A stretch of DNA of 64,000 bases from Tubiluchus corallicola (lineage: Eukaryota > Animalia > Priapulida), in assembly GCA_030141605.1 (NCBI GenBank), contig JAQGDQ010000120.1, positions 62,001-126,000 on the forward strand. The letters are read 5' to 3'. Position 1 is the first letter of the stretch; each line of letters opens with the position of its first letter. Both the position numbers and the translations under genes were made by a program. The notes beneath the pieces were generated by a model, which saw only the letters and a list, made by a program, of their open reading frames with translations, ran no database searches and was not told the DNA's origin. Shown piece after piece: positions 15,601 through 21,600 of this stretch.

Positions 15601-18600
15601 TTTTGTCTCTAGACGTTCGCGTTATGCAGAGTTTACTGTAGATACATATTCATGATTTGCAGGCTGTAGGATAAAAACAATTGTAAAATTCGCGCCATTT
15701 CTACCAAAAACTTGTTACCGCCGAGGCACGCCAGCCGCTGGGCGGGTAACATTTGTTTTATCATGTAATTGTTTATTGTCTTTGAGGCATTCTGCGAATA
15801 TTCGTGATACGATAACTTGATACAGTAATAAATTCGTATGCTAAAACATGAAAATAGTGTTCATAGCTCAGCAGTTTTAATATGAAACTTTTATGGAATC
15901 AGCAATAGGAACAATAAAACCTGAAATTACCATAATTGTTTTCCGTTTTTTTAAGTACATGAAATAAAAGAGCCGTTCATCAACAGTGAACACGCTATAA
16001 AACTTTTTGCATGTTTTTTGCTCATGACGCCTGAGAGTGTAGCTAGAGAAATTTAAAAAATTTGCATTAGTTCAGTGAATAATGTTAACCTAGTCAAGGT
16101 TGATTTGTTGTTGGGATTGTTCACTTTTTCTATAAAAAGGTTTAACATTGATCATATTTTTTACGTACAGGCACTGAAGATTCGGTGGATAAGGAAAGTT
16201 TCGTTTTGGATTTCACTAAAAGAAAATGCTGTAAGTGCTGTGCACTTAACATTAAGATAACGTTACAAAGACAGCTAACTAAATTTTTGGTGCATTTTTG
16301 TATCAACTTGAAAAATGGCTTAACTGTTACTGGTATTCTTTTTCATGAAATTTGCAGTGTCTTGTGTCACGAGAATAATAATGCTGTTTTTATCCTCTGG
16401 ACATTTTCAATTGATAATTTCCACTTCTAAATTGTAACAGTTTGTAAATCTAGTGAAGTTTTTAAAGAAATTTATTGCCACTTATGTAGTGGACGTAACA
16501 GTTGTTGAAAATACTCAGCTGTTATTAAATATTTTTCGTTGTAGTGAACGATGAATTAAGTCATGAAAGACAAGAAAATCTTGATATAGTACACGCTTAT
16601 GGTGACGGTTTGAAAGAAGTGGAAGTAGACCAACCGAATTCATTTTTTCTAGAAATAGGAGAATTTGCGAAATCAAATTTTAAAGCTCAGTTGCACAGTA
16701 AGTTTTCATTTTCCATAATTATATAGACCTATGGGAAACAGATAGCTGTATTATTACAGTAATGATTAAGCTTGTTAACTATTAGTAATAAATAGTGAGT
16801 TGGATATAAAATTTTAACATGTAAAATACAAACCACACACTTAATAGAATAAATTTTTTTTTAAAAAAAATGTTAATTAATAGCGACTGAAGCTGAGTCT
16901 GTTGCTACTACATCAGCTGACTCACACAGTAAATCAGCTAGCTCGGCTGAGGTTGACTGACTTTTCATCTGAGTCAGCTAAAGCTACGAATTTTTGTTAA
17001 ACTAAATATATAATAAATCATTAGGTAACTGTTAGATTATGAAGACAATTTTTTAAATAATTTGTGTTGCTTGTACACAGAAAAAAGCTGATGTACAATT
17101 TCATATAATGCATTAGAGATCAATTTTTTATTATTATAAAAAAGCAATTGATTTATTGCAAGTATAATTTAAATCAAACTCTTGGCAAGGCTTATCTTGA
17201 TTACCGATGGAATCTATACCAAAACATCAGAATTGATCTCATACGCGTGACTAACGTTGTCTATTTGTGTATTTTTTTGAATTGACCAGCTTTCTAGTTC
17301 AAAAATTTCTAAAGTTTAATATCTCAAGAGCAAAAAACTTCACAGCCAGCAAAAATGTCGGCTAGCTTGACTCCCTCACTGAGCGGCTGTCACGACTATA
17401 GCTGGATTTTTTATCGGCTAGCTAGACTGTAGAAATAAACCGGCTGGAGCTCAGCTGAAACGGCGCGGCTGTAGCGACTCTATTAATTAAAAATGTCCTA
17501 AAATACATAAAGGAATACAAAAATTACATATATGATATAAAAAAACACTGCTAAATAAACACTACTTCTTAATTGTAGGGCCAAACGGCAAAGTTCTTGA
17601 TATCCGCTTAGTACACATAAGAAGTGGATTACTTGAAGGAAAATATTGTTGTCGCGAAACAGGTAAAGATAAAACTATTAATGTTTAAAACTGTTTATTT
17701 GCAAGCATGTTTGACAATTGTGCATTCTAGGTACATTGCTTTGGTGACAAGTATTATGCATACAGCATACAATTTTTTTACATTATTCTTTTCTTGAATA
17801 AACATCCATAGTGATAGTGCACAAATCAAGGCATTTGTATTAGCTTTGATAAGCTGTTTTTTTAACTAACCAAACTGAGCTAGACAATTATTGTATTTTT
17901 CCATTACGCGATGCATAGTTGCCTAAAGGAAAGTAATGTACTCATCGGTGTCTGCCTGCTTATTGAACATTTAGTGTTACATAATAAGGATACCACTGTT
18001 ACTTTTTCTATGAGTTCAAAGTTTGTGTTGCTCAAATGCAACTAGCTCTTTAGCGTCAACTTCCTAAATGACAATGTCATACAATGAAAACGATGTTACG
18101 TCTAATATTGTTAGCATCCGCTGATATTGAATTGAATTGAAAAACTATTTTCAGGCAATCACATCATTCACATTTCTTATCATGGACAGGCTGTTGCTAA
18201 AACTCCTTATACGGTGAAGGCATCAATGAGCAAATCAGCTCATCGTGCAGCACCGTTTCGGGCTGTGGCGTATGGTGAAGGACTGCAAAAAGCTCACGTA
18301 AACAAAGTGTCGCAGTTTGCAATTGATCTGAATGGTGGCGACAAACAACACCTGTCAGCAGATGTTATTGGTGAGTTGCTATTATTTTTCTAGAAAATCT
18401 TGTGGTTTGTTTACAGTGTTATTGTTACTATTAATGTTATAGTGGGCTTCACAATGCAATGTTGACTTACTATGAGTACTGTCATCTTTGGCCTCACCAT
18501 GTCATGTTGGTCATGGTTATGAACAGTGATGGACAGTTCACTGTCTAAAAGAACTAGTACAAGTTTAAGAGAGTGCATTGACAGGGAAATGGCCTAACTT

Positions 18601-21600
18601 TAAATACTAGTTTAGCATGAGAAGAATAATTAACTAACATACAGAAATTCAATTAATTTTTATATGACTTTGCAGTAAAAGAAAACTATTACAAACATAT
18701 AAGCAAATTATATCAAGTTGAATATATCATTCAAGTTCATAATCAAAATGAATTTTACTCATGTTTACGCTGAATCAAATTGCTAATGTTTTTGGAAATT
18801 CAAAGCTCAAGGCAAAATTAACAAGTCTATTTTTCAACATATTGTCCCGTTATTGATTATGATGCAATCGTCAGTACTTTTTAGATTCACGTTGTTGCTA
18901 ATTTAATTTCAGATCCACATGGAAACATAAATAGCGTAGCTTTGAGACCAAGTGACGAAGGACTTAATGCAGATTATGTGTGTCGACAATCAGGTACTTT
19001 TTACTGTTGTGTGTAGTTTCTGTTGCATAAGTGACTTGTAGAGAATGTGGCAAATGATACTGCAATATTTATGGAAATGCATGTCATTATTAGTATGACT
19101 GATAGATTTAAGGAGTTGATTACTGTATTTACAATATTTAAATTGCTTCCATCTGTTTTGTTACGTGCGTGTTAAGTGTTTGTGAGACTTGTAGTCTTGT
19201 GGCATATTGTGTATTTTTAATGAATTTAAGGAATTTTTTATCACAATTGGCAAAACTTATTCGCAGGTGCACATATTGTGAACATCTTGTATGCTGGAAT
19301 ACCAATCCAGGGTAGTCCCTTCACTATTCATACAACAGAAGCAGAAAGTACGCCATCAGGTAATAGAACTTTGTGAGCGCTGTATCGTGTCACAAAATAA
19401 TTTCTTTTTGAACAGCATGTATTTCTTACTTTTTTCAATGCCAAATACCATTATTGTGAATTTCATATACAGTGGAATCTTGTTACTATGATTTTGAAGA
19501 TCACACTTTTTTCAAAGCGTAAAATCGATCGATGACCCAGATTAACAAAACTTTGCTCAATCACTAAATGGGGTTCTCCTTGGACACTGTCATTGTGCTT
19601 TCATTTTGAAACTTTATTTCCAAATGTAAAAAATGTAGTCTTGTCGTCTTCTCAAATTGCATTGTGCTTTCTTATTGTTACAGTTGTCATAAAAACATCG
19701 AGGAAGGCTGAAAATGGTCGTCGAGTGTATGACAAGAGTTTGGCATGTTTATATTGCGATAAAATTTTGAAACATCGTATAATGGATCACCTTTTTCGTT
19801 GCCATCCGGATGAACAAGAAGTGGCTAAAGCTATGGCACAAAAAACTGCAACAGAGAGAAGACGAATAGTGAACAAAATCAAAAACTTGGGTAATTTCCG
19901 GCACAATATTGAAGTGTTAAAACAAAAAAAAGGAGAACTTATCGTCAAAAAGCGTTCTCGCAATGACAAGCAAAGGAAGTCTGGTGATTATTTACCTTGT
20001 TGTTATTGCTTCACTTTCTGCCTAAAGAAAGAACTTTTCCGTCATGTGAGTAGTTGCGTTGAGAACCCTGGAACGGTTAGAAGTAAAACTGCATCAGCTG
20101 TTGCATCGTCAAGAATACTACTTGCATCCAGTGTGAAGACACGCTCTCGGATAAATGATGACTCCATGAAAGAGTTGAAAGAACAAGTAACGGACAAAAT
20201 GCTGGCTGACGATGTACGGGATGTAGCCATTCAGGATGAACTGATTGTATTATTGGGCAACATTTTATTAAATAAACTTGGCCCAAGACGACGCCATTCC
20301 ATAGCTCAGAGAATGAGAGAACTTGGAAGGCTCAAAATCAAACTGCAGGAAACGGGGTCTCCAAAAAAGTTAGAGGACTACATCCACCCGGGATGCTTTG
20401 ACGAAATAGTCAATGCCGTTTTGTGGTTAAGTGGCTCTCATGTGAATGAAAACCGCGTGACGGGAATGAATACTCCCTCTTTGGCAGTTTCATATGGCAA
20501 TACCTTGAAACGTTGTGCAAATGTGCTAATTGGGCAGGCCATCCGAATCGGGGATAATAGCTTACTGAACAATGCGCGTGAATTTCTGGAACTTGTTAAA
20601 AATGAATGGAATGAGAAAGTGTCTGCTGTTGCTTTAGCTACGCTAAAGGCGAACAAATTTAGAAATCCTCAAATTTTACCAACGACAGAAGATTGTGCAA
20701 AACTACGCGAATACCTAGACCAGCAAATCAGCCTTTTATCAGTGTCACTGACAAATAAGCCCCTCACTTCCACGTATGTTTCTTTGGCTGAACATTGTTT
20801 GGCTCGTGTCGTACTCTTTAACAAACGGAGGTCCAGCGAAGTCGCTCATTTACTGCTGGAAACCTTCTGTAACAGAAAAGACAATTGCAATAACCTCATT
20901 TCTGAAATCACTACAGGACTGAGTGACTGCGAGAAACAAATGATGAACAGGCTGGAATTGGTCGAAACACAAGGAAAGCAGAATAGACGTGTGCCTATTT
21001 TGTTGTTGAAAGACATGGTTGATGCAATTGAGCTTCTTGTAAAATTCCGAGCTCAGTGTGGCATACCAACAGAAAATCCCTATCTGTTTGCTAAACCAAG
21101 CAATCAGCCGATGCAAGTGTGGAAGGTGTTAAATCAACTTGCAACTGATGCCGGATGTTCAAACCCGGAAAATATATCATCTAGCCGACTTCGTAAATAC
21201 TTGGCTACCGTTTGTCAGTTGCTCGACATGGAAGAGTACGAGTTGCAATGGCTAGCACGTCACTTGGGACATAATGTAACTACACATAAGGCCTTCTACA
21301 GGCAGCATGATGCGTGCGTCGAAATTGCAAAAGTAGGGAAACTCATTTGTGCAGCAGATCAAGGTGTACTAAACCAATATTGTGGAAAATCTTTGAATGA
21401 CATAAACATTGTGCATGAACCTGTCCCTGGGCAGGATGATCTTGATGACTGTTCGGAGAGCGGAATCTGCGAATCAAATCAAGGTGAGGATGATGAGGAT
21501 GATGTGTTGGATGTAGAAATGGCATATTCAGATGAGACAGAATATGATGACATTGAGATTTCCGGTGTCAAGAAAATGCCTAAGAAAAAACGCACGTGCA

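Follow-up and report, generated by a model that had tools for sequence, protein, structure and literature searches.

A predicted fusion of filamin repeats to a tyrosine recombinase in a likely CryptonV-like transposon of the priapulid Tubiluchus corallicola

We report that an intron of the huntingtin gene of the priapulid Tubiluchus corallicola holds what is likely a CryptonV-like DNA transposon, and that the predicted gene of this element joins two divergent filamin, or immunoglobulin (Ig)-like, repeats to a tyrosine recombinase. The element (10981..25144, + strand; 14,164 base pairs, bp) lies in a stretch of 64,000 nucleotides (nt) of GenBank assembly GCA_030141605.1 (contig JAQGDQ010000120.1, positions 62,001 to 126,000 of the forward strand), hereafter the window, and positions are counted from its first letter. 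In the explanation we favor, to which we assign a probability of roughly 0.55, a CryptonV-like transposon gene has captured two filamin repeats that provide its tyrosine recombinase with a module for docking to a host protein.

The proposed gene, on the + strand throughout, ends in a long exon (19684..21890) of 734 amino acids (aa), recognized as a recombinase by its fold model and family alignment. Five small exons upstream are read as the N-terminal part of filamin repeat 1 (16545..16697, 153 nt), its middle part (17579..17662, 84 nt), its end followed by a linker and the start of repeat 2 (18155..18370, 216 nt), the middle part of repeat 2 (18913..18993, 81 nt), and the end of repeat 2 with a short linker (19267..19359, 93 nt), which carries the predicted fusion donor. 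All five are bounded by AG and GT and are multiples of 3 nt long, and their 627 nt contain neither a stop nor a frameshift; once they are joined to the long exon, a single frame stays open for 943 codons and a stop, the other two frames holding 66 and 80 stops. The initial annotation had proposed that five small exons splice in frame to the long open reading frame, and the GT-AG intron ends, the shared phase 1 and the single open frame support this as a splice prediction. Its figure of 993 aa for the spliced protein is reached once three further predicted exons are added, namely a first coding exon with an ATG (11343..11385; phase 1 donor, 88th percentile), a second of 45 nt and phase 1-1 (12986..13030; acceptor 99.7th, donor 99.9th percentile) and a third of 60 nt and phase 1-1 (16171..16230; acceptor 98.5th, donor 82nd percentile). 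Percentiles are ranks among the 880 GT and 775 AG sites of the element under a splice-site matrix built from 15 huntingtin exons of the window, two boundaries of which are uncertain and were forced. On this scale the donors of the filamin exons fall at the 93rd to 99.5th percentile, their acceptors at the 74th to 96th and the acceptor at 19684 at the 94th; the 324-nt intron between 19359 and 19684 combines that acceptor with a donor in the 99th percentile (99.4th) of matching phase.

The long exon itself asks for an upstream partner. Its first methionine is residue 33, downstream of sequence conserved in the family, so that a phase-1 exon must precede it, the donor at 19359 being the closest; the + strand of the element has no second long exon. 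Taken together, the predicted junction makes the existence of a filamin-recombinase fusion transcript likely. An RNA-labelled run yielded pieces over repeats only and is uninformative on expression. One candidate exon (13602-13703) was dropped, because its natural frame, phase 1-2, would break the chain. At 13019-13142 a stretch of 64 bp around the donor of exon 12986-13030 is duplicated locally, the second copy lacking the GT.

The filamin assignment was assessed exon by exon and then on paired segments. Single exons were scanned against Pfam PF00630, with a cut-off of 26.9 bits. Exon 18155-18370 matched at an E-value of 1e-5 and 26.7 bits (profile 4-38), just below the cut-off; for exon 19267-19359 the values were E 0.018 and 16.3 bits (profile 76-93), likewise under the cut-off, and the other three had no Pfam match when scanned alone. 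Among PDB sequences, exon 18155-18370 matched filamin A at E 3e-5 and the first filamin exon, 16545-16697, brought up no filamin on its own. When the corresponding segments of the two repeats were turned into two-sequence profiles and searched against PDB sequences, filamins led the matches of the N-terminal segment (12 of 13; best E 0.012) and of the C-terminal segment (best E 1.4e-4); the middle segment, represented by exons 17579-17662 and 18913-18993, which are 31% identical to each other, gave five matches with no filamin among them. The top ESM Atlas matches, at 0.90, were filamin clusters, exon 18155-18370 being supported by this source as well as by Pfam and PDB sequences. The two repeats are identical at 25 of 88 positions, a score reached in none of 5000 shuffles, and introns fall at matching places in both (aa 101/201 and 129/228). 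The segments thus stand in filamin order over about 90 residues and are tandemly repeated, the middle one lacking a filamin match, and the combination of segment matches, repeat identity and shared intron places is not what chance exons would produce. We conclude that the five exons encode two filamin repeats, as originally claimed, the fold of the spliced region being predicted from sequence. Like filamins A, B and C (PF00630) they are tandem repeats, two in number and each about 88 aa long, in which the segments follow the right order; unlike those proteins the predicted product lacks an actin-binding domain, has no more than two repeats, both divergent, and joins them to a DNA enzyme.

The 734-aa exon encodes, in order, two Cys/His clusters, likely zinc fingers, ahead of the core-binding and catalytic domains, an acidic/basic disordered stretch and a C-terminal three-helix domain that is modelled confidently and is Myb-like by ESM features. 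The model of the exon has a mean predicted local distance difference test (pLDDT) of 74.9, and its top Foldseek matches are XerA, XerH and lambda integrase (best E 4.9e-3). A second structural alignment gave XerH at Z 11.4 (root-mean-square deviation, rmsd, 5.5 over 300 aligned residues) and Cre at Z 10.1 (rmsd 3.8 over 281), in agreement with the DNA breaking-rejoining fold proposed earlier. By motif and family alignment the catalytic residues are R382, K431, R503, H529 and Y538 (R at 20829, K at 20976, R at 21192, H at 21270 and Y at 21297, + strand), and they agree with the family columns; the H of the HxxR motif is S or T throughout the recombinase family. The model and alignments identify the exon as a tyrosine recombinase with its family's catalytic residues intact, and activity is predicted.

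This recombinase belongs to a large family, 7,094 protein clusters matching at E <= 0.001 and 1,347 at 1e-30, with named relatives in bivalves, fishes and a hemichordate. The closest, from Solemya velum (P0001), is 46% identical and falls with it in a subclade of 13 (support 0.99). Relatives such as P0001, P0039/P0042, P0009 and P0129 share with it the Cys/His clusters, the recombinase core and the helical domain at the C-terminus, and it is the N-terminus that varies. We scanned 102 relatives with Pfam, 26 of 55 from one protein search and 76 of 150 from a larger one, the latter comprising 72 chosen for N-terminal extensions of at least 150 aa plus 4 long ones. Domains found were SET in 19, MamL-1 in 8 (4 of them under the curated cut-off), BRCT in 3, chromo in 1 and ATF7IP_BD in 1, in keeping with the statement in the initial annotation that related proteins tend to carry SET or other N-terminal modules. 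Examples are SET in S. velum P0001, BRCT in oyster P0039/P0042, MamL-1 in loach P0009 and chromo in pipefish P0129; P0164 and P0169 also have added domains. SET recurs widely among the relatives and accounts for 79% of an ESM Atlas cluster of 86 members. Filamin therefore newly occupies an N-terminal slot whose content varies, and since the family often swaps N-terminal domains the fusion is less singular than it would otherwise appear; the modules of the relatives are of chromatin or nuclear-signalling type, whereas here the module is an Ig domain of cytoskeletal type. In several of the nearest relative loci (L001-L003, L006, L033, L034, L041 and L055) introns interrupt the recombinase near residue 422, residue 512 or both; the window copy and L036 have neither. 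Within the searched literature, which left Repbase Reports, subscription journals and supplements outside, no paper joined tyrosine recombinase, filamin and transposon, and titles and the starts of abstracts held nothing on the domain swaps of this family; a domain-swapping recombinase family of 7,094 clusters seems undescribed in the papers searched.

The recombinase gene sits inside a bounded segment of a huntingtin intron. The huntingtin exons on either side, 10652..10775 (+, phase 2 donor) and 25624..25786 (+), are consecutive and keep the frame, with Htt_C-HEAT recognized at E 7e-21 on the exon after, and the intron between them spans 14,848 bp compared with 160-1,446 bp for 13 other mapped huntingtin introns. 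Taking out 10981-25144 leaves 684 bp. Because the huntingtin donor is of phase 2, the exons of the element are out of frame with huntingtin and cannot be in-frame exons of it. Alternative huntingtin exons were dropped for their phase. The segment is flanked by (TA)9 on the left (10963..10980) and (TA)55 on the right (25145..25254), the likely target site, and these are two of only five TA tracts of at least six units in the window; the ends at 10981 and 25144 are uncertain within the tracts. Directly inside them lie TATCC-N3-CATG (10985..10996, +) and, inverted, TATCC-N2-CATG (25132..25142, -), candidate binding sites of the recombinase. This motif, defined after the fact from the two ends, has two matches in the window, one per end. 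The 200-bp ends align in inverted orientation with a score reached in 3 of 300 shuffles, a modest significance. In 65 metagenome loci of relatives the motif matched once, away from any microsatellite; three of these loci (L026, L027 and L030), each beginning with an (ATAC)n tract and continuing in identical sequence, may be one locus and were not counted as support. The element has one frame of at least 120 aa, its 6 other frames (80-105 aa) being without Pfam match, and no separate cargo gene was found by open frames and Pfam. That 10981-25144 is a mobile element seems to us highly probable, and its placement between TA tracts fits a transposon aimed at microsatellites; the attribution of the recombinase to a transposon is upheld.

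CryptonV is reportedly a group of Crypton DNA transposons in Repbase, owed to Kapitonov and Jurka in 2012. The recombinase presumably belongs to it, and we call the element CryptonV-like. The element shares with CryptonV the character of an animal tyrosine-recombinase DNA transposon without reverse transcriptase located in a microsatellite, (TA)9 and (TA)55 standing at its ends at this one locus, and the recombinase is its sole enzyme, as in Cryptons; no filamin domain is reported for CryptonV in the searched literature, and this sets the element apart. Kojima describes CryptonV as recombinase transposons that insert in microsatellites (PMC8869645), and the group is also listed elsewhere (PMC4455052, PMC5753468). 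Cryptons have short direct repeats at their two ends and lack true terminal inverted repeats (PMC3212892); here the (TA)n on both sides could act as such a direct repeat, and a degenerate inverted similarity is found besides. Starship captains (DUF3435) likewise are tyrosine recombinases with added reader domains, the captain Kirc having a zinc finger and a chromo domain (PMC8092012), and the present recombinase scores 0.86 against them in ESM features, which is a lead only; Starships differ in being fungal, large and provided with separate cargo genes (PMC8092012, PMC13465315), and were ruled out here by the lack of a DUF3435 Pfam match and of a cargo gene in the element. CryptonA/DUF3504 genes (ZMYM, QRICH1, KCTD1) also join a Crypton-type recombinase to host-like domains in animals, but they lost the catalytic tyrosine (PMC3212892) where the present recombinase retains Y538, and CryptonA was ruled out because the long exon shows no DUF3504.

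Assembled contigs give an indication of copies other than the one in the window. In DNA run X1 the summed contig depth, which does not equal copy number, stands near 170 in the flanks and ranges from about 170 to 480 in those bins of the element where repeats do not dominate, and divergent contigs are found along the element and hardly in the flanks. Between 18120 and 19400, variant contigs of this sample carry 22 substitutions, 20 of them intronic, one silent and one changing an amino acid, and three of four indel sites are intronic as well (binomial p 0.019 for the intronic excess); two extra variant rows, found in run X4 alone, do not enter these figures. Several of the variants recur in X4, which is a different sample. 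Coverage of the element in runs X4 and X5 is patchy, and gaps in them were not taken as an empty site. The variant contigs hint that a second copy exists, with the filamin region present in it as well, and give a weak sign of constraint on the exons, alleles being possible. At 18938-18987, contigs of X1, X2 and X4 hold an apparent tandem repeat of ~53 bp nearly identical to part of a filamin exon and bearing a 3-nt insertion, the step back of this repeat being listed for X2 and X4; it may be a minisatellite that arose from a different copy of the element. At 18631-18632 variant contigs in X1, X2 and X4 break into loose ends, which suggests that a further small element has inserted there, in either a second copy or an allele.

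Crypton elements are modelled to move by excision of a circle and its reinsertion through site-specific recombination (PMC3212892, PMC9977147). By analogy with Crypton and tyrosine-recombinase biology, the recombinase would bind the two degenerate inverted ends, the TA tracts would form the crossover region, and recombination between them would release a circle able to reinsert into another (TA)n tract; insertion into an intron would be tolerated in that the host intron could still be spliced out. The filamin fragment may have been gained, to judge from the rest of the family, by phase-1 exon capture into the variable N-terminal slot. It would be dispensable for catalysis, binding a peptide of a host protein so as to tether, localize or shield the recombinase. 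Filamin repeats are protein-binding and, in filamin A, repeats 21-24 bind BRCA1 and BRCA2 (PMC3573937), which makes docking their likeliest function; the earlier suggestion of docking to a host factor is plausible by this analogy. Granted the fusion, we think it reasonably probable that the filamin module is maintained as a binding adaptor.

Several observations weigh against the docking account as a whole. No Foldseek match of the long exon model reached E <= 0.001, and the exon has no Pfam family at E <= 1. The filamin repeats are divergent, with single-exon scores under the Pfam cut-off, and searches for the same architecture brought up no other filamin-recombinase, in line with the initial annotation, which knew of none: filamin is absent from the 102 Pfam-scanned relatives, from 203 stored relatives by local search and from 65 loci, which leaves no cross-species conservation among the relatives examined to support a function. 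Precomputed domains of 45 protein matches likewise held no filamin, the filamin N-terminus against the 65 metagenome loci gave a best E of 0.088 that was not filamin (many of these contigs being short upstream), exon 18155-18370 used as a query for longer proteins returned 14 candidates of which none was scored, which is weak evidence, and 66 pattern matches among viral contigs included no relative. The extra domains of some relatives (STIM1 and ZMYM, for example) may be artifacts of gene prediction that join them to host genes. The similarity of the inverted ends is weak: in an anchored 30-nt comparison, 296 of 2000 random pairs did as well, and the anchored tests were not significant. Coverage of the exons by variant contigs is uneven, these contigs may represent alleles, and in one of them a tandem repeat of exon 18913-18993 carries an insertion of 3 nt. 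A nested repeat in the first filamin intron suggests that the present copy is not brand new. Finally, all eight upstream junctions are of phase 1, so that leaving out the filamin exons would preserve the frame of the transcript just as well.

We consider it rather doubtful, if the most serious of the competing explanations, that the filamin exons are a captured passenger, a host filamin fragment that the element carries and that is tolerated because it keeps the frame or is spliced past, contributing nothing to transposition. Symmetric phase-1 exons are skippable, filamin is missing from every relative examined, and the divergence of the repeats from known filamins implies a long separation from any donor gene; on the other side, the filamin exons run over 627 nt with no stop and no frameshift, their splice sites are strong and the variant contigs show few exonic differences. 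A wider version of the adaptor idea, in which the family plugs host domains into its phase-1 slot and the filamin pair has been selected as an adaptor or decoy for filamin partners, be they nuclear repair factors or the actin scaffold, can be put forward tentatively; a cytoskeletal module would then guide the enzyme of a transposon. Very unlikely, in our judgment, is that the filamin exons form a separate small gene or alternative transcript unjoined to the recombinase exon. The 19359/19684 junction is a sequence prediction, and CryptonS and CryptonF elements can carry a second gene, a peptidase (PMC3212892), but the short intron with strong sites and matching phase, the lack of another long + strand exon and the absence of a methionine ahead of the conserved sequence all speak for the joined gene.

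A similarly slim chance attaches to the filamin pair dimerizing the recombinase and driving synapsis of the element ends, which the initial annotation had raised beside docking and which emerges as the weaker of its two suggestions. An 89-residue filamin A chain, which we take to be repeat 24, is among the weak matches of the N-terminal segment profile (E 0.36), no better than the matches of other repeats. Repeat 24, and in filamin A only that repeat, dimerizes (PMC3573937). None of the 102 relatives has the module. Tyrosine recombinases such as Cre and lambda integrase assemble their synapses through their own domains. Finally, the filamin fragment and Crypton recombinase could have been domesticated together as an immobile host gene nested in huntingtin. 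Crypton recombinases were domesticated repeatedly (PMC3212892), the gene has many exons, and some stretches of the element equal the flanks in contig depth; yet its catalytic residues are intact, unlike those of domesticated DUF3504 genes, its TA tracts and end motifs are preserved, and divergent contigs run along the element and hardly into the flanks, so that we hold domestication to be most improbable.

The element offers an example, intact and clearly bounded, of a tyrosine-recombinase transposon from an animal whose target, (TA)n, is simple, in a family of thousands of protein clusters named only in passing in the searched literature. The swapped domains of this family (SET, MamL-1, BRCT, chromo, filamin) list host pathways that such elements may exploit and amount to a natural domain-swap series, and for targeted integration a cargo of 14 kb aimed at microsatellites is of interest. 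Until a function is shown, the filamin module by itself counts as a capture in a single lineage.

Repeats are nested in the element. The one in the first filamin intron (16875..17490, approximate ends) is a high-copy inverted-repeat element resembling a miniature inverted-repeat transposable element (MITE), with matching inverted, TTAA-rich ends, internal 60-bp repeats and very high summed contig depth. More high-copy repeats were seen at 14705-15340, in the second intron, and at 23286-23468, in the 3′ region.

Pfam places three genes in the window besides that of the element: huntingtin (Htt_C-HEAT), NOP14 (Nop14) and a TENT5-type nucleotidyltransferase (NTP_transf_7). NOP14 (29794-32490, -) is a single long frame adjoining huntingtin. 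At about 36450-42400 (+), 5′ of TENT5 (55647-56828, +), lies a spliced gene with a weak CRAL-TRIO match (E 0.015), which we take to be GDAP2-like; presumably huntingtin and NOP14, and GDAP2 and TENT5C, are likewise adjacent in the human genome.

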